A stretch of DNA of 64,000 nt from Candidatus Hydrogenedentota bacterium (GCA_045863335.1 BTVY01000015.1:21511-85510); one strand, 5' to 3'. Positions 219-10,059 are shown, counted from the first letter of the stretch. Notes: generated by a model not told the origin, from the letters alone. A program made the numbers and translations.

Positions 219-243
219 AAAAAAGCGCCCCACTGGGAGGCGC
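219..243 (-). terminator. Intrinsic terminator of the RM operon
   Basis: On the minus strand GCGCCTC-CCAGT-GGGGCGC is followed by TTTTTT, about 140 nt downstream of hsdS. Confidence 0.7.
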
Positions 244-381: not shown

Positions 382-1611
382 CTACTCCGCGATTAGTTGG
401 CCCGTAAAGGCGCGGGAGAGCAGGACTGAAAAAGCACGTTCCGAGAGATGAAGTGCAGCTGTGGACTGGTTCACCACCTTGTCCCATTGTTCAACCCTCA
501 TGAGAAATCTTCTTTGCATTTCCATTGGTGGAAGAGGGAAGGGAAAATGTTTCACCTGGCTTGAATTAATGGATGCTAAGTTGCTGGTTCTCTTCGCCGC
601 CCTAAAGAAATAAGACTTGGCGTAAGAGGTTCTAAGAGTAGCCGCAAGAAACTCTGGCAGAATACGGCTCTGATCAGGCCTCACTCGAAAAACGTGATTC
701 TGATGAATACATCCATTGACTTGTCCTCTCCAGATGCATCCTCGCCCCAACTTATCAGGATCGCCTCCCTCGGTCATTAATATGTCGCCATCTTCCAGAT
801 GGTATTTTTCTAAATCTGCCGGAAGAACGGATATCTCCTTTACCTCGGATAAATCCAGAAAACCATCCTGAACATTGGCAACCCGCAAGTAGGGAACTAA
901 GATCGTTTCCTTCCCATGTAGTCTTCTCCCTTTTGTAACCCCGGAGCGGATAGCGGCAACTTCCTCCAATGCCACCGATTGGAATGTAGTTCTTTCTGGT
1001 TCAAGCTCGCCAAACAGGCTGTGAAAAGCAGCTGGCAGGATTCGGTCGGCGAGGCGGCGGGCCTCGGCCCGTTTGCGCCGGATCGCGTCCGCCTGACGCA
1101 ACACCTCCACAATCCGCTCCTGCTCCGACAACGGCGGAAGGGGGATATCTACTCCTGCGATATCAGGCAAGCGAAGAGATGGATAGTTATTCCTCGGGGC
1201 AATATCCCTGGCGTCAACAGTCAACAAAAAGAAATAGAGATAATCGGGGATTGCCGACTCCTTCGCTACAATCGTCGCCAAATGCGAAGAGACATAGGCG
1301 GGACAACCCAACATTGCGCGATGGTTTAGAAATGTAGATGCCCCGCTCTTTGGAACAAGTATTGTGGACTCCGGCCAAAGTCGCAGAGTCTTAGTTTGGA
1401 TGGCATGGTCGTTCAACCTGTCCGTGGTTTCGGTTAGGCAAGGCGTCTTGCCTTCTCGACCCACGTCCTGCGTCCGGACGAAAGGATAGACGCCATCATT
1501 AAAGAACTCATTGCCTTGAGGCGCGGAGTTCCCCGCGCCTATCTGCGCGACATCCCTATCTCCGAGCTTCGCCCAGCGCCACCCCTTCGGCAATTTCTTG
1601 CGTCCGGTCAT
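382..1611 (-). CDS. hsdS: Type I restriction-modification specificity subunit
   Basis: N-terminal LPKGWRWAKLG; two TRDs, each followed by PLPPLSEQERI / PLPPMEMQRRF conserved regions; C-terminal LLSRAFTGQL; in an operon with hsdM and hsdR. Confidence 0.93.
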   Translation of the reverse strand: MTGRKKLPKGWRWAKLGDRDVAQIGAGNSAPQGNEFFNDGVYPFVRTQDVGREGKTPCLTETTDRLNDHAIQTKTLRLWPESTILVPKSGASTFLNHRAMLGCPAYVSSHLATIVAKESAIPDYLYFFLLTVDARDIAPRNNYPSLRLPDIAGVDIPLPPLSEQERIVEVLRQADAIRRKRAEARRLADRILPAAFHSLFGELEPERTTFQSVALEEVAAIRSGVTKGRRLHGKETILVPYLRVANVQDGFLDLSEVKEISVLPADLEKYHLEDGDILMTEGGDPDKLGRGCIWRGQVNGCIHQNHVFRVRPDQSRILPEFLAATLRTSYAKSYFFRAAKRTSNLASINSSQVKHFPFPLPPMEMQRRFLMRVEQWDKVVNQSTAALHLSERAFSVLLSRAFTGQLIAE

Positions 1612-2774
1612 CGTCCGGCCTCCTTGCCGATGACGTTCTCGGCGCAGGCGAAGAACTTGCGGAAGCGGTCAACGTCGAGTTCGTGGGCGTTCTGCGCCTC
1701 GGCTTTCCACAGCCGCGCGCCGTCGAGTTCGAGCAAGGGCATCACCGGCTTGAACGGCGCGAGATAGCGCCGCAGGATTTCCTGCCGCTTCTTGTGCGTG
1801 GCCATCTGGCCGTTGCCGCCGAGGGCGTTGACTTCGGCCTCGGCGTCGAGCCGGGAGGTATTGACCATGATGAACGGGAAGGCGGCTTCGTATCCCTCCG
1901 GTTTCTGGACGCCCAGTTCGATAAACTGTTTGACGCGACGGACGAACTCGCCGGGGGCGGGTTCGCTCCATTCGCATTTCTTCTGTGGTAAATGCTTAGC
2001 CCAGTCCGGCGGCGTGGGGGTGAGCCAAGGGCGGCCTGTGGGCAGGATGCGCAAGGCATGAACCTGTTGCGCTCCGTTTGCTCCCTGTGCCCGTCCGATC
2101 ACGGCGCACGGCCCCTTGACCAGCGCGGAAAGCAGCATGGCGTTGGAGACAAAGGCGTCGGCGTTCAAGCCATCCTGCAGAACCATCCAATCCTGGCTGG
2201 GATCGCGCCAGAAGGTCAGGTCGAGGCGTTGTGGCGGACTGTTGGGGATCGATGCCGTGACCGTCGGGAAGAAACATGCGTTGAACTCATCCTCCAGCCA
2301 ATCGAGCGCCAATTCCTTGAGATACAGCGCCTTGACGGTCTGCGGCATCCGGGTCAGTTGCTCGTCGTTGGTGATGAAGAGCAATGAACGCGTTTCCCCG
2401 GCGGTCGCCATTTCCACGGCGTCGGGCGTCTTGACGGGCGGACGGGCGGCATTGTTGACGTTCGACGCGCGGCGGATTCCTGCGGCCTGAATGCCGATAT
2501 TATCGTCCACAGGAACAAGATCGAAGTATTGCCGGACGGCGGAGAGCATGGCGGAATGATCGGACGGGTCCACACGGGCGAGCAGTTCGGCGAGCGTCAT
2601 GGAACTGGTGAAGAGGCGCACGTCGCCCGCGTCCTTGGCTTCGAAGACCGGGCGGAGGCTCTCAGCCCACGGCCATTCGCCCTTGAAGTAATAGAGCAGG
2701 CAATTGGTATCGAGACAGATCAGATTGCCAGGAGCGAGCGCGGATAGGAGAGCGGCCTGAGCGGTCGAGGTCAT
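1608..2774 (-). CDS. PIN (VapC-like) ribonuclease domain fused to an unrecognised ~230-aa C-terminal domain
   Basis: PIN motifs ICLDTN, SSMTLAELL, TPDA, FITNDEQL in the first ~150 aa; 4-bp ATGA overlaps with hsdM and hsdS. Confidence 0.85.
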   Translation of the reverse strand: MTSTAQAALLSALAPGNLICLDTNCLLYYFKGEWPWAESLRPVFEAKDAGDVRLFTSSMTLAELLARVDPSDHSAMLSAVRQYFDLVPVDDNIGIQAAGIRRASNVNNAARPPVKTPDAVEMATAGETRSLLFITNDEQLTRMPQTVKALYLKELALDWLEDEFNACFFPTVTASIPNSPPQRLDLTFWRDPSQDWMVLQDGLNADAFVSNAMLLSALVKGPCAVIGRAQGANGAQQVHALRILPTGRPWLTPTPPDWAKHLPQKKCEWSEPAPGEFVRRVKQFIELGVQKPEGYEAAFPFIMVNTSRLDAEAEVNALGGNGQMATHKKRQEILRRYLAPFKPVMPLLELDGARLWKAEAQNAHELDVDRFRKFFACAENVIGKEAGR

Positions 2775-4570
2775 GCTTCGGCCCCCTCGGCGTCGGAGTC
2801 ATCGGAGAACTTGAACGCGCCCTTCAGCCCGGCGGCGGTCTTGGGGACGGAAATCATGTCGAGCAATTCCTCCAAGTCGCTCTGGATCTCGCGTTCGAGG
2901 TCGAGCAGGCGGTTGATGAGGACTTCGGGCGGCTCGTACTCCTGCGCCTCGGCCTGATGCGGGCAGTAGCGCCCGGCGGTGAGGTTGTAGTTGCTGTTGC
3001 GGATCTCGTCGAGCGAGGCCCACCAGGACTTTTTGCTTTCGGCCTCCGTGGCGGCGTCGGGCTTGAGGCTGGGAACACCCTTGGCGAAGCGGTAGGGGAA
3101 CCGTTCGGTCATGTCCTGCAAGTCGCCGTTGCGTTCCGAGCCATCGGGATTGAACCAGTCGGCCAGCAGGCGGCGCGTCGCGCCCAGGTCCTTGCCGTCG
3201 CTCTCGACTTGGTAGAACCAGACGCGCTGGGGCTTCTCCTCGTCCTTCTTCTTCGGGCGGCGGATGACCACGACGGAGGTGTTCGCGCCGCTGTAGGGAT
3301 TGAAGACGCCGTTGGGCAGAGAGATTACGGCGAGCGTCTGGTAATGCTCGACCATCCGCTTGCAGATGGCGCGCAAGACCTTTTGAGAGCCGAACAGCAT
3401 CCCTTCCTTGATGACGAAGGCGGCGCGTCCGCCGGGCTTGAGAGCGTTGAGCATGTGCTGGGTGAAAAGCGCTTCGTAGAGCTTGATGTGATGCTCGAAA
3501 TGTGCGGTGCGCTCCTGCGCCGTCGGGCCGAAAGGCGGATTCGCGAGGACCACGTCGTAAAGACCGCGCCGAGTTTGCTGCGCCTGGCTGGACAGGCTGT
3601 CGGCTTCCTCCATGTGCGTTGAGCCGTCGCCGTGAAGGATCATGTTCATCAGGCCGAGTTTGTACACGTCGGGCGCTTTCTCGACGGCGAAGAGGTGCTG
3701 CTCTTTGAGTTCCCGCGTGGCGCGTTCGCGCTGGGCGAAATCGCGGACGGTTGCATTGATCTTGTCCTGGACATACTCGAAAGTGCGGACGATGAATCCG
3801 GCCGTACCGCAGGCAGGATCGTAGATGGATTCGCCGCGCGCAGGATCGATCACCTGCACCATACGGTCAATAACGTGGCGCGGCGTGAAATACTGGCCGT
3901 ATTGCTTCTGTTCGCCCAGCTTGTTGACGACGAACTCGTAGGCGCGGCCAAGGTAGTCCCACTTGCCGCCGCTGCTTTCCTGAATCCTGACATCGAGAAG
4001 TCTTTTGCATAGTTCCCGGATGGTGGGATCGTAGCGAACGCGAAGTGAGTGGTTGCGGAAGAGTTTTCGAAACAAGTGCAAATCACGGGTGAGGGGCTGT
4101 TTGATTCGATTGATATCGACTGCCCCATCCGAAGCCGCCGGCTTCTTGTCCGGAAGCCGCCAATATGGCGCCGCCTCTTCTCGCGCGCACAGCCCAGAGA
4201 AGTCGTCACCTTCGTTTAGTGGTTCTACAACATCGCCGATCTTGGCAAGGCCGGAGAAGAGATTCTGCACGAAGGCTACGAGCGATTCGCATCTGTGTTC
4301 CTTGCAGAATTGTTCGGGACTGGTCGACACCATCTCAGTTGCCCATGAGTAGAAGCGCATCTCCTTTGGCAGATAGGGAACGTATGGACCTTTTCCAAGC
4401 TCTTCGAGCGCCTTTTCCTCGGCGCTCTCGCGTTCGTCCCATAGTTTCAGGAAGAAGAAATAGGAGAATTCCTCGAGGTATTCCGTCGTCTTGAGCGTGT
4501 CGTCGCGAAAGACATTTGCGATGCGCCAGAGTTCTTCTCCGAACGAATTGAAGTCAAGCGTCTTTGCCAT
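2771..4570 (-). CDS. hsdM: Type I RM N6-adenine DNA methyltransferase subunit
   Basis: GQYFTPRHV, motif I DPACGTAGF, catalytic NPPF, C-terminal YNLTAGRY. Confidence 0.93.
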   Translation of the reverse strand: MAKTLDFNSFGEELWRIANVFRDDTLKTTEYLEEFSYFFFLKLWDERESAEEKALEELGKGPYVPYLPKEMRFYSWATEMVSTSPEQFCKEHRCESLVAFVQNLFSGLAKIGDVVEPLNEGDDFSGLCAREEAAPYWRLPDKKPAASDGAVDINRIKQPLTRDLHLFRKLFRNHSLRVRYDPTIRELCKRLLDVRIQESSGGKWDYLGRAYEFVVNKLGEQKQYGQYFTPRHVIDRMVQVIDPARGESIYDPACGTAGFIVRTFEYVQDKINATVRDFAQRERATRELKEQHLFAVEKAPDVYKLGLMNMILHGDGSTHMEEADSLSSQAQQTRRGLYDVVLANPPFGPTAQERTAHFEHHIKLYEALFTQHMLNALKPGGRAAFVIKEGMLFGSQKVLRAICKRMVEHYQTLAVISLPNGVFNPYSGANTSVVVIRRPKKKDEEKPQRVWFYQVESDGKDLGATRRLLADWFNPDGSERNGDLQDMTERFPYRFAKGVPSLKPDAATEAESKKSWWASLDEIRNSNYNLTAGRYCPHQAEAQEYEPPEVLINRLLDLEREIQSDLEELLDMISVPKTAAGLKGAFKFSDDSDAEGAEA

Positions 4571-6827
4571 TGTCGGGCATCTCCTCGTCGGGCGGATTCA
4601 GAATCGTCATGGCATCATCGGCAAGGGCAATAAACTCCTTAAGGGAGCCAAACAGGGCCTTGACCCTGGCGATCCCCCCTTGCCCGTCGAGCCACTGCGA
4701 GCGAAGCAATTGCTCGGGAGTTATTTCGGGGTTGGCGTGGCGGAAGTCACAAAGCATCTGCACGAGTTCGCGCTGCTCGCGAATCAGGTCTTTGTCCAAC
4801 GCCCAGCGCTCGAAAAGCCGGCGGCGGCCTATCAAGTCGAAATCCGCTTCCCCTAACGCAACGGCGACAAAGTCCTCAATGTCACCTTCCGGCTCGCCAT
4901 AAAGATCGCGCAAAGTATGAACATCGAAGCCCATTGTGGCAAGAAAAGAATGATCCATCGGCGCATCGCTTTTGAAGTACCGCCAGGAATAGACCGTTTG
5001 AACGAAGCGTTCACGTAGGCCGTCGCGGGACAAGACTTTGCGGAGTTGCCCTTCGATCTGACGGCGCAGGTCTTCGAGCATGGCAGGTGCGAGCACTTCG
5101 GAACTTTCGAGCGTGACGGGAACGTCGAGGATCACCATTTCCTGCGGCTCCGGCGGCTCCGGTTCCTCCTCGCCGCCGACGGGTGGTTCGCCGCCTTCTC
5201 CGCCGCCACCGCGCTCACGGTCGATAATGACTTCCTCTTCCTGTTCGATTGGTTCCTCGGTGACGCCGGGGGTTTCGTTGGTGACGATCTCCGCGGCGTC
5301 TTCGAGTCGGGTAATGTCGACGAAGTCCACCAGCTTGTAGAAGTCCTTGCCTGTCTCGCGGCACTTCCGCGTGCCGCGCCCCTTCATCTGAACGTAGAGG
5401 ATCTTCGATTTCGTGGGGCGGGCCATCAGGATGGCTTCCACGTCGGGTGCGTCGATGCCTGTGTCGAGCATTCCGACCCCAATGGCGATTTTGATGTCGC
5501 CGCCGATGCGCTGGAACTCCTCGATCTTGTCGCGGGCGTCTTTCAGTTCGTTGTGAATGGCGACTATGAAATCCTCCGCCGTAGCATCAGTCGGCGGGAG
5601 GTGATGAAGCTCGTTGTAGCGATTAATTAGCGCGTAGCGTAAGTTAACGGCGTGACGAATGCTGGCGGCAAAAACGATGGTCTTCACGGGATCGCGGCGG
5701 CCAATGACCTCGAAATACTTCTCGGCGATCATGGCGTTGCGCTTGGGCACGTCCACAGCGCGACCCAACTGTTCTGGTTCAAAGTCAAAACCCATGTCAT
5801 GAACACCGTGCAAATCGACGTTCGTGTGAAACTTGAAGTGGTGACACTGGGAGAGAATCCCGTCCTTTTCGCCCTGACGAATCGAGTAGCGGAATATAGG
5901 GCCTTGGTATTGGCCCTTGTCGCAGAAGTAGCGGTCCGTGCTTTGCGTTTCCTTGTCGGCGGGCGTCGCCGTGAGCCCAAGGCGAATCGCTCCGCCTTCG
6001 GCGAAGTGTTCCAGGACGCCATGCCAGTCCCCGTAGTAAGAACGGTGGCATTCATCCAGGAAAACCAGTTGGAAATGATCGGACTTGTAGATCTCGTACT
6101 TCTTGCGGACGGCGAGATGCTGGACCGTGGTCACGAGAATATCAGCGAACTTATCTTCGCGCTCGCCGGTGGCCCTACGGACAGTGAGGGCATCGCCCAT
6201 CTGGTCCTTGAAGGCGCGCTCGGTTTGGCCCGCGAGGGCGTCGCGATCCACGAGAAACAAGGCGCGCTGGATCAGGCCGAGCGACCAGAGTTTCGCAATA
6301 ATGCCTGCGGCGGTGATGGTCTTGCCGGTGCCGGTCGCCATTTGCAGGTACATCCGTTTGCGCCCCGCCTGCACGGCGGAAAGGACTTGCGATACGGCGA
6401 CGCGCTGATAGTCTCGCAAATTGCCGAGGAGAATGTCGGCCTGGGGGCGGAAGAGTTCGTTGAATTCGCCCGGCGTGGGGAACTGCTTGATGCGTTCGGG
6501 TAGCGTGTTGGCTTTGAGGTTCTGGCGCAGGAACATCGCGCCGTCGCTGGCGAAGAGCAAGGGTACGTCATGGCCGGTGTTGCGCTTGTATGCGCGCGCA
6601 TAACCCTTGGCTTGTTCGAGGGCAGCCCAAAGGTCGCGGCCCGGCTTCTTGGCTTCGAGGATGGCCGCAGGCTTGCCGTCATGCAGAAAAACCCGGTCGG
6701 CCTCTTCTCCGTCCAGTTGCTCGCGCCAGCGCTTGCGGGTGACGGTGAAATCAGCTATGTCCCACCCCCTAGCGCGCAGATGCTCCTCCATCAGCACTTC
6801 CGCTTCATCTTCATTCATTATCGGCAT
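4554..6827 (-). CDS. hsdR: Type I RM restriction endonuclease/helicase subunit (compact, 757 aa)
   Basis: PD-(D/E)xK-like ADRVF...ILEAKK plus QAKGY; Q-motif LRDYQ; Walker A MATGTGKT; DECH; TAT; TGIDAPDV; QMKGRGTR. Confidence 0.92.
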   Translation of the reverse strand: MPIMNEDEAEVLMEEHLRARGWDIADFTVTRKRWREQLDGEEADRVFLHDGKPAAILEAKKPGRDLWAALEQAKGYARAYKRNTGHDVPLLFASDGAMFLRQNLKANTLPERIKQFPTPGEFNELFRPQADILLGNLRDYQRVAVSQVLSAVQAGRKRMYLQMATGTGKTITAAGIIAKLWSLGLIQRALFLVDRDALAGQTERAFKDQMGDALTVRRATGEREDKFADILVTTVQHLAVRKKYEIYKSDHFQLVFLDECHRSYYGDWHGVLEHFAEGGAIRLGLTATPADKETQSTDRYFCDKGQYQGPIFRYSIRQGEKDGILSQCHHFKFHTNVDLHGVHDMGFDFEPEQLGRAVDVPKRNAMIAEKYFEVIGRRDPVKTIVFAASIRHAVNLRYALINRYNELHHLPPTDATAEDFIVAIHNELKDARDKIEEFQRIGGDIKIAIGVGMLDTGIDAPDVEAILMARPTKSKILYVQMKGRGTRKCRETGKDFYKLVDFVDITRLEDAAEIVTNETPGVTEEPIEQEEEVIIDRERGGGGEGGEPPVGGEEEPEPPEPQEMVILDVPVTLESSEVLAPAMLEDLRRQIEGQLRKVLSRDGLRERFVQTVYSWRYFKSDAPMDHSFLATMGFDVHTLRDLYGEPEGDIEDFVAVALGEADFDLIGRRRLFERWALDKDLIREQRELVQMLCDFRHANPEITPEQLLRSQWLDGQGGIARVKALFGSLKEFIALADDAMTILNPPDEEMPDNGKDA

Positions 6828-7028: not shown

Positions 7029-7057
7029 ATGATACTAGATATAATCGTTTACGGCAA
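7029..7057 (-). promoter_or_regulatory. Putative sigma70 promoter of the RM operon
   Basis: Minus strand TTGCCG-17 bp-TATCAT, about 200 nt upstream of hsdR. Confidence 0.55.
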
Positions 7058-7567: not shown

Positions 7568-7817
7568 ACCCCCCTTGAACCGTCAAAACAAAAACGGGGT
7601 GCACCCGGTCCATCAGGCACAGATTCCAAACCCAAAACCCCAGACTAGCCATATCGCGTATGTGGTTACAGGAGAACAAGAATCAAAATCCAGAATCCAG
7701 AATCCGCAATCCGCAATCCGCAATCCGCAATCCGCAATCCGCAATCGAAACGCCTCCGGCCTCCAGTCTCCGGCCTCGAGACCCCCTTGAATCGTCAAAA
7801 CGAAATGGGGGTGCACC
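7568..7817. repeat. Two imperfect ~38-bp direct repeats (7568-7606, 7781-7817), each preceded by a heptamer array
   Basis: ACCCCC(C)TTGAAYCGTCAAAACRAAA..GGGGTGCACCC occurs twice. Confidence 0.85.
7681..7750. repeat. Heptamer array: ATCCAGA x2 plus ATCCGCA x6
   Basis: Directly visible; same unit and orientation as the array at 1-217. Confidence 0.95.
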
Positions 7818-7857
7818 CCCCTGCAAACGGAGACCCCTCGATGTCCCGGACCCCCGG

Positions 7858-7902
7858 AAAAAGAAGAACCGCGCGGCGAAGGTTAATTCCGCCGCGCGGT
7901 TC
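7858..7902 (-). terminator. Intrinsic terminator downstream of hppA
   Basis: 13-bp perfect stem GAACCGCGCGGCG/CGCCGCGCGGTTC followed by a T-rich tract on the minus strand. Confidence 0.8.
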
Positions 7903-7926
7903 GTGCAATCCGTGTCGCGCGTGTCT

Positions 7927-10011
<2,085 letters not shown>

Positions 10012-10059
10012 ACGAATTACCCCCTGTTGCCGTAATCGAGCCGGTTCGACTACGGACCG

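Follow-up and report, generated by a model that had tools for sequence, protein, structure and literature searches.

Why should a gene for a PIN-domain protein of the VapC type sit, with no antitoxin gene of its own, between the methyltransferase and specificity genes of a type I restriction–modification (RM) operon? The question is raised by a 64,000-nt stretch of DNA from Candidatus Hydrogenedentota bacterium (GCA_045863335.1 BTVY01000015.1:21511-85510; hereafter the window, in which positions count from the first letter). A preliminary description of the operon had proposed that the PIN protein is a guard of the PrrC kind, a nuclease held latent by the RM enzyme. We find that the gene belongs to a rare family which occupies a fixed place in one lineage of RM operons, and that several relatives carry an antitoxin-type domain at the C terminus of the specificity subunit HsdS, an arrangement that suggests how such a protein may be held and released.

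The PIN gene and its product

The operon consists of four packed genes on the minus strand in the order hsdR-hsdM-PIN-hsdS. Its first gene, hsdR (4554..6827), encodes a 757-residue protein (P0004) with HSDR_N nuclease, ResIII/SF2 helicase and EcoEI_R_C domains. The start of hsdM (2771..4570; P0003, 599 residues, N6_Mtase at E 1.4e-55 plus HsdM_N) overlaps the hsdR stop by 17 nt. The PIN gene follows (1608..2774; P0001, 388 residues plus stop) and then hsdS (382..1611; P0002, 409 residues), whose product has two target-recognition domains (Methylase_S, E 7e-21). The stop TGA of hsdM and the start ATG of the PIN gene share an ATGA at 2771..2774, where the sequence reads ...GAAGCATGACC..., and the PIN stop and the hsdS start ATG share another at 1608..1611, which reads ...GGACGATGACC...; Shine-Dalgarno-like purine-rich runs lie 5' of both the PIN start and the hsdS start. 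This gene order and these two 4-bp overlaps had been read in the preliminary description, and the coordinates bear them out. All three type I RM subunits, HsdR, HsdM and HsdS, are identified by Pfam, PADLOC and NCBIfam. The best NCBIfam match of HsdR is restrict_EcoAI (NF046051; E 2.9e-77, 260.7 bits), and Pfam finds the EcoEI_R_C domain at 26.5 bits versus a cut-off of 24. Because the former lies under the equivalog cut-off of 550 and the latter is present, we call the system EcoAI/EcoEI-like (family IB), a likeness that falls short of proven membership.

Residues 19-143 of the PIN protein match the Pfam family PIN PF01850 (E 1.1e-9, 39.3 bits versus a cut-off of 23.6), and Pfam, Foldseek, VIA and a family profile together place the VapC-type domain at residues 17-153 (2316..2726, minus strand). 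The four acidic positions that had been reported as intact are all present, in the motifs LDTN (D22, 2709-2711), AEL (E63, 2586-2588), PDA (D118, 2421-2423) and TND (D137, 2364-2366); in PIN domains these four form the catalytic set. They are invariant in 22 of 22 members of the close family and in 33 of 33 sequences when a distant sister family, described below, is added. A profile of the family matches solved VapC structures, best 7by2 (E 4e-5), with E63, D118 and D137 aligned to VapC acidic positions.

Structure prediction leads to the same assignment. A first AlphaFold model, made from 22 sequences, had a predicted local distance difference test (pLDDT) score below 50 in the PIN half and was replaced by a second (m138935626825) made from 33 sequences, sister family included, with a pLDDT of 83.8 and a predicted template-modelling (pTM) score of 0.81. 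In a Foldseek search of the PDB the second model gave 36 matches at E<=0.001, with target-normalised TM scores of up to 0.78; the matches listed are almost all VapC or other PIN-domain proteins. The best structural matches in VIA are VapC15, VapC11 and VapC21 (Z 14.5-15.1), led by VapC15 (4chg_A) with a Z of 15.1 and a root-mean-square deviation (RMSD) of 2.3 Å over 128 residues, and a Z>=8 is attained by 25 chains. Sequence and structure thus agree that a VapC-type PIN domain with its active site intact makes up the N-terminal half.

The C-terminal domain (CTD), residues 154-388 (1611..2315, minus strand), is of alpha/beta type in the structure model. The preliminary description could not assign this region of some 230 residues, and neither can we: its 230-235 residues have no match in Pfam, NCBIfam or PADLOC, and residues 150-388 found no usable match in an ESM Atlas feature search. 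In the second model the pLDDT of the CTD is mostly 80-94 and the layout alternates between strand and helix, with a low-confidence loop at about residues 249-272. An RPW..P..PDW motif at residues 248-258 is specific to the close family; the sister family is missing this loop.

Searches for the fold, for which full-length models were used, gave weak matches. With the first model, Foldseek found no CTD match in the PDB at E<=0.001, the top rows being APOBECs at E 0.05-0.7. VIA matched the CTD to RadC (2qlc_A, Z 6.2, RMSD 3.8 Å, 115 residues aligned; later Z 5.3) and to MPN/JAMM and cytidine deaminase chains at Z 3-5, values which by the tool's own calibration may reflect merely a common arrangement. 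We file the CTD with none of RadC, MPN, deaminases and APOBECs, and we claim no new fold either. Proteins of the JAMM type carry the metal-binding motif E..HxH..D, and deaminases H/CxE..PCxxC. Over both families (33 sequences), none of the invariant CTD columns is a His, Cys or Asp. The columns that are invariant (W159, W258, S307, Y337, E359 and G383) are mostly hydrophobic or structural, and the sister family has not retained H364 and R330, which never vary within the close family. Because no catalytic-looking residue is conserved in both families, we read the CTD as probably non-catalytic, an adaptor or a regulator.

Association with one restriction–modification lineage

Proteins that combine this PIN domain with this CTD are rare. 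At E<=0.001, 46 of them (P0001 and 45 homologues) were found among 5.8 billion proteins, and the closest relatives of P0001 are 84-91% identical and 387-388 residues long. In a library of 1.84 billion representatives, matches that span most or all of the protein come from three clusters, among them a 365-residue variant that aligns only up to residue 283; the remainder are fragments. The gene is under purifying selection: the ratio of non-synonymous to synonymous substitution rates (dN/dS) is 0.07-0.20 for the whole gene, with 0.05-0.10 in the PIN part and 0.06-0.28 in the CTD, all rough figures with dS near saturation. With 45 homologues and a dN/dS in this range, it is conserved far beyond chance.

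Scans of genome and metagenome contigs gave 14 loci, those of the relatives being mostly metagenomic, and 10 of these hold a member of the PIN-CTD family. L003, L004, L013 and L014 have the PIN part only, in L003 and L004 as stand-alone PIN proteins of 135-152 residues. The PIN-CTD gene comes directly after hsdM in 10 of the 10 family loci. The full order R-M-PIN-S is seen in L001, L002, L005, L006, L007, L010 and L011; genes are lost to contig ends in L008, which begins inside hsdM, and in L009, which ends inside the PIN gene. Two pairs of loci are near-duplicates (L007/L008 and L010/L011), which leaves eight distinct systems plus the window.

The junctions are conserved as well. At the hsdM/PIN junction the overlap is 4 bp in L001, L002, L006 and L009 and 8 bp in L007 and L011, the exception being L005 with a gap of 245 bp; at the PIN/hsdS junction the same 4-bp overlap is found in L001, L002, L005, L006, L007 and L011. 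Across the loci, identity drops to 43% for the PIN protein while HsdR and HsdM still hold at 61-66%, from which it follows that the three have diverged together; the HsdR proteins of related loci are 64-89% identical.

A sister family of slightly shorter proteins (367-381 residues; six among the matches found) is 21-24% identical to P0001 and homologous over the full length (hhalign E 7e-37, 345 columns). Its linkage to hsdM was read from the order of accessions rather than from sequence: PIN and HsdM proteins with consecutive NCBI accessions come from contigs of equal size in MBW8042160 (PIN)/MBW8042161 (HsdM), and a second such run is HYC50980 (HsdM)/HYC50981 (PIN). The HsdM proteins so paired are 48-50% identical to that of the window. 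A Chloroflexi record served as positive control: its M, its PIN protein and an S of 562 residues are numbered consecutively. The sister family was absent from all 401 sampled genomes of the phylum of L003, and viral contigs held no match to it; on plasmids there was none for its member P0057 and a short PIN match of 132 residues for P0001. With 10 of 10 loci directly after hsdM and three accession runs besides, homologues do not occur mostly outside RM loci, the outcome that the preliminary description had named as damaging to its proposal.

The PIN-CTD gene thus co-occurs strictly with one RM lineage, and that lineage is scattered. Both the PIN family and a close HsdM are missing from the 134 further genomes of the phylum to which the window belongs, including five of its genus, and from 400 other sampled genomes of the phylum of L002, while the operon turns up in Thermodesulfobacteriota, Acidobacteriota and Chloroflexota. 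Because the two are missing together from phylum mates, the operon moves as one unit and is sporadic in its occurrence.

Three further observations concern the neighbourhood of the PIN gene and the HsdM proteins. In L012, a pair of genes with overlapping codons for a HEPN protein (E 1.1e-26) and a nucleotidyltransferase (Polbeta/NTP_transf_2) lies between hsdM and the PIN gene (L012:7071-8151), giving the order R-M, HEPN/nucleotidyltransferase, PIN; the PIN protein there is truncated after about 121 residues, with no hsdS behind it. HsdM proteins linked to the close PIN family have an insertion of 40-75 residues after the N-terminal domain (residues 115-165 or so in the window). It is missing in the five most distant of 16 aligned proteins. 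The HsdMs beside sister-family PINs and three relatives with no known PIN context do not have it, and five other relatives have intermediate inserts. Lastly, a 931-residue database protein (P0251), 61% identical to the window's HsdM, combines an N6_Mtase with a Methylase_S domain; either HsdM and HsdS may be fused in it, or it may stem from read-through at a locus that has no PIN gene.

HsdS–Panacea fusions and candidate partners of the PIN protein

As the preliminary description had noted, the window locus leaves no space in which a VapB gene could lie: the PIN start overlaps the hsdM stop by 4 bp. Nor was any conserved small open reading frame (ORF) found; the sole small ones on the same strand close to the junction, two off-frame ORFs of 74 residues inside the 3' end of hsdM, have no conserved counterpart in the other loci. 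In L005 an extra ORF of 77 residues with its own sequence resembling a ribosome-binding site starts on the hsdM stop and lies between hsdM and the PIN gene (L005:6595-6828); it has no Pfam match, and the window has no counterpart of it. It could be a replacement antitoxin, as a candidate only.

A different kind of candidate partner was found downstream. The HsdS proteins of L001, L006, L007/L008 and L011 are 569-585 residues long and consist of a normal HsdS with an extension of about 170 residues; in L010 the HsdS is split into two ORFs. Taken alone, the extensions of L011 and L007 score 32.5 and 26.9 bits against PF13274 (SocA/Panacea), above the cut-off of 25.7, and those of L001 and L006 score 19.2 and 15.0 bits, below it; the four are mutually 41-66% identical. 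A SocA/Panacea antitoxin domain is thus present at the C terminus of HsdS in four of the seven distinct systems with a readable hsdS. In the databases, 24 HsdS proteins of 562-612 residues bear a Panacea-type extension, several of these long proteins being on contigs equal in size to PIN-family contigs (11533, 12779, 9092, 7081, 3947 and 8819). The preliminary description had called the PIN gene antitoxin-less, which is right for the window and wrong for the family.

The window, L002 and L005 have an HsdS of 399-409 residues with no Panacea domain. Short HsdS proteins stop at ...AFTGxL.., the exact point at which the extension of the relatives begins, and that of the window ends ...AFTGQLIAE; by Pfam it is Methylase_S only, and no Panacea remnant was seen 3' of the hsdS stop. 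In a quick tree, the labelled loci in three early-branching groups all have a long HsdS, and the loci with a short HsdS occupy two distinct regions within a single derived clade, alongside L001 with its long HsdS. This suggests an ancestral fusion that has disappeared, or has given way to another hsdS by exchange, at least twice. The only other Panacea gene of the genome lies on a different contig (L027, G000:C2:73419-76700; ORF 1357-1971, 204 residues, PF13274 at 61.5 bits). A 128-residue ORF (1972-2358) directly follows it, and the two look like an ordinary PanAT-like pair; this Panacea gene has no similarity to the HsdS extensions.

Panacea-containing antitoxins are described as binding their cognate toxins (PMC8832971, PMC10440598), and they either neutralise them directly or serve as accessory or sensor domains (PMC10440598). 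Because such a domain is fused to HsdS, whose gene comes next after that of a VapC-type toxin and shares codons with it, toxin and S subunit are likely to work together, and the genomic evidence for a partner of the PIN protein points to HsdS over the methyltransferase, on which the preliminary description had supposed the CTD to dock.

From this we propose the following scheme. A VapC-type PIN ribonuclease, fused to a non-catalytic CTD acting as adaptor or regulator, would be the fixed fourth gene of one EcoAI/EcoEI-like lineage with the order R-M-PIN-S. Translational coupling would have the PIN protein made in step with M and S, and it would be kept latent by the S subunit or by the M2S or R2M2S complex. 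In the ancestral form, probably still the commonest, the C-terminal SocA/Panacea domain of HsdS would bind or sense the toxin; in the Panacea-less window, latency would come about through the PIN protein's own CTD, touching either the complex or the PIN active site. Once the RM complex is disabled, with phage anti-restriction proteins as possible triggers, or once HsdS is lost or degraded, the ribonuclease would be freed and translation would stop. The result would be an abortive-infection back-up like that of PrrC, with the side effect that loss of the operon is penalised. What the sequences show is the gene order with its coupling, the PIN identity with an intact active site, the strict tie to this RM lineage and the HsdS-Panacea fusion of relatives; that the ribonuclease is toxic, that it binds S or M, what sets it off and that it serves in defence are what we infer. 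The guard interpretation of the preliminary description is partly supported. The reading we favour is a latent ribonuclease toxin that the S subunit or the RM complex holds in place or neutralises, as a PrrC-like device or as an addiction module, and we hold it to be nearly as probable as its contrary. The more specific version is an RM enzyme of four components, in which HsdS doubles as antitoxin or sensor for the PIN ribonuclease (by its fused Panacea domain or, where that is missing, by the MPN-like adaptor domain of the toxin) and inhibition, dissociation or loss of the RM enzyme leads to cleavage of RNA; this we put forward tentatively and regard as rather doubtful.

Several points weigh against the favoured reading. 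In the window, L002 and L005 the proposed neutraliser is absent, yet the PIN gene is intact. The toxin is encoded upstream and its partner downstream, which differs from the classical VapBC order, and neither sequence nor fold searches find a recognised fold or interaction motif in the CTD. The toxicity of the ribonuclease is presumed from membership of the VapC family. The ancestral state was read from a quick tree, in which several of the long-HsdS labels derive only from coinciding contig sizes. In multidomain antitoxins, moreover, Panacea may not be the neutralising part, according to PMC10440598. A complex prediction for the HsdS-Panacea (572 residues) and PIN (391 residues) proteins of L001 scored 0.00 in two runs that had no controls, and counts neither way.

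With Panacea missing in the window, latency must rest elsewhere, most simply on the CTD, and this makes a fused toxin of the CapRel kind the main rival. The CTD would then fold onto the PIN domain as a cis-acting antitoxin and phage sensor, and the RM operon would be a mere carrier with no physical coupling to M or S. PIN domain and CTD are indeed modelled as one confident unit, by both of the scores given above; the CTD has no catalytic-looking conserved residues and is retained in both families with or without Panacea on HsdS; and in the three systems that have no Panacea domain the PIN gene is still intact, with purifying selection acting on it. CapRel is mentioned as a fused toxin-antitoxin in PMC10440598, and many independent defence genes are reported as embedded in type I RM loci (10.1101/2024.01.29.577857; for DarTG2, PMC12255303). 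A self-contained unit of this type, however, gives no account of why HsdS should have acquired an antitoxin-type domain in this lineage in particular, of a slot with overlapping codons between hsdM and hsdS that is kept down to 43% identity, or of a sister family that also adjoins hsdM, and we consider it unlikely.

A stable PIN toxin and a labile HsdS or HsdS-Panacea might instead form a post-segregational killing pair, whose main role would be the stabilising of a mobile RM operon and not defence against phage. The operon is foreign to its host lineage (PIN family and close HsdM in 0 of 134 phylum mates) and sporadic in the three phyla named above; its neighbours in the window are housekeeping genes, with H+-pyrophosphatase, RNase III and FabF to one side and glutamate synthase to the other; and Panacea is an antitoxin-type domain. 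Against this, the Panacea part was apparently lost in at least two lineages that retained the PIN gene. We judge addiction as the main role quite improbable; it is compatible with the guard reading and does not exclude it.

Strict operon membership and translational coupling would also suit a non-toxic accessory of the RM enzyme, for example a ribonuclease that tunes the hsdR, hsdM and hsdS mRNAs in a new host, or a nuclease that processes restricted nucleic acid, and the window and two relatives do tolerate the PIN gene in the absence of an antitoxin-type domain. The PIN domain is nearest to VapC toxins in both sequence and fold, however, and relatives pair it with an antitoxin-type domain. 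In addition, the HsdM proteins below about 55% identity among the 120 homologues listed are 540-559 residues long and show no contig-size match with the PIN family; if they come from PIN-less systems, the PIN protein is dispensable for RM function. An accessory role of this sort seems very unlikely to us.

Least likely of all is that the window's module is a recently disabled remnant, its PIN protein inert or decaying since the loss of HsdS-Panacea: HsdMs 84% identical to the window's occur on contigs matching in size those of 603-607-residue HsdS-Panacea proteins, so that the loss may be recent, and the related operon L012 has a decayed PIN, but the window's PIN protein is full length with every family-invariant residue kept, its nearest relatives have the same length to within a residue (387-388, at 84-91% identity), and dN/dS is 0.07-0.20 in comparisons that include pairs of Panacea-less loci.

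The surroundings of the operon can be described briefly. The housekeeping genes for H+-pyrophosphatase, RNase III and FabF lie 5' of hsdR, and a sigma-70-like promoter match occurs about 200 nt 5' of that gene (7029..7057, minus strand), which is weak at three matches versus 2.9 expected in shuffles. On the strength of a consensus scan alone, a GC hairpin with a run of T behind it, resembling a terminator, lies 140 nt 3' of the hsdS stop (225..243, minus strand). Beyond hsdS come a gene for a YhcG/DUF1016 nuclease of the PD-(D/E)XK type (E 1.6e-51), a 408-residue ORF with no assignment, and then glutamate synthase; the first two, which lie at L024:7975-9228 immediately beyond the start of the window, may form one island with the RM operon. 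Arrays of a heptanucleotide repeat (AATCCGC / TCCGCAA) in like orientation flank the operon at 1-218 and 7687-7746. The former has 31 copies and runs past the window start into a scaffold gap of 100 N, the latter about 6.6 copies; of the 105 contigs that make up the genome, more than 20 contain the repeat (85 matches to the pattern versus 0 for a reversed control). Two ORFs were rejected as genes: one of 229 residues 3' of hsdS is translated heptamer repeat with the N gap, and one of 791 residues at 7660-10035 (plus strand), which matches no family, merely shadows the H+-pyrophosphatase gene that is encoded on the other strand (7927..10011, E 1.5e-242).

Relation to known systems

The PIN protein shares with VapBC toxins the PIN fold and the four acidic residues. 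It differs in having no VapB gene, in its 388 residues with an extra domain of 235, in being embedded in an RM operon, and in that its candidate partner is a downstream RM subunit. With PanAT systems the relatives share a Panacea domain encoded by the very next gene downstream of the toxin, the two genes having 4 bp in common; here, in contrast, Panacea is fused to a full HsdS, and the HsdS of the window has none.

Toxin-type modules between RM genes have been described before. DarTG2 lies between RM genes in enteropathogenic Escherichia coli (PMC12255303), and a "guilt-by-embedding" survey reports 3,231 families embedded in type I RM loci (10.1101/2024.01.29.577857). Such embedded systems are self-contained cassettes that have their own antitoxin and occur elsewhere too, whereas the PIN-CTD gene is no cassette, co-diverges with the RM genes and has its likely partner domain on an RM subunit.

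The general concept is already known from a 2021 preprint (10.1101/2021.01.18.427177), according to which antitoxin-less vapC and hicA genes immediately flank three of the four complete type I RM operons of Thiohalocapsa PB-PSB1, and a PrrC-like "fail-safe" is proposed. Observation and hypothesis are the same as ours; the accessible text of the preprint mentions no CTD, no fixed M-PIN-S position and no HsdS-Panacea fusion. Neither NCBIfam nor PADLOC (PADLOC-DB 2.0.0) had a match for P0001, which is thus not catalogued in the latter, and in a literature search that covered texts outside supplementary tables we found no 388-residue PIN-CTD family, no fixed hsdM-PIN-hsdS place and no HsdS-Panacea fusion. 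The preliminary description had allowed that its system might already be described. For the idea of a fail-safe this is so; the PIN-CTD family, the conserved M-PIN-S slot and the HsdS-Panacea fusion, which we did not find in print, appear to be new.

The closest functional parallel is PrrC, described as a ribonuclease within the EcoprrI type I RM locus that is latent under the RM enzyme and activated when phage inhibits the enzyme (PMC12707154, 10.1101/2021.01.18.427177), and as found almost exclusively embedded in type I RM systems (10.1101/2024.01.29.577857). The main known examples of guardians that answer a failure of restriction with abortive infection are PrrC and, as cited in PMC12707154, PARIS. 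On the question of how often an RM enzyme and a suicide effector are physically wired together, the PIN-CTD family would be a compact and testable case, with a toxin fold that is well understood and a constant place between M and S. Its natural variants with and without an antitoxin-type domain on HsdS offer a ready-made comparison for how a toxin is held and released; a link between the two proteins would also give Panacea, for which the authors of PMC10440598 suspect a sensory role, a defined protein context, and would assign a function to an uncharacterised domain of 235 residues.

Like PrrC, the PIN-CTD protein is encoded inside a type I RM operon (in 10 of 10 loci and three accession runs) with no separate antitoxin gene. 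The two have no sequence relation: at E<=1, P0001 matches none of the PADLOC families, PrrC models included, and in Pfam it matches PIN only. PrrC combines an ABC-ATPase with an anticodon nuclease, whereas the effector here is a VapC-type PIN domain with an unassigned CTD, and EcoprrI is a type IC locus, whereas the PIN-CTD gene lies between hsdM and hsdS of an EcoAI/EcoEI-like system. The relatives, unlike PrrC systems, fuse an antitoxin-type domain to HsdS, and latency and trigger are proposed here by analogy. If the reading as a four-component enzyme is true, these operons would hold the first RM subunit fused to a toxin-antitoxin domain, and a second, structurally unrelated invention of the principle embodied in PrrC.

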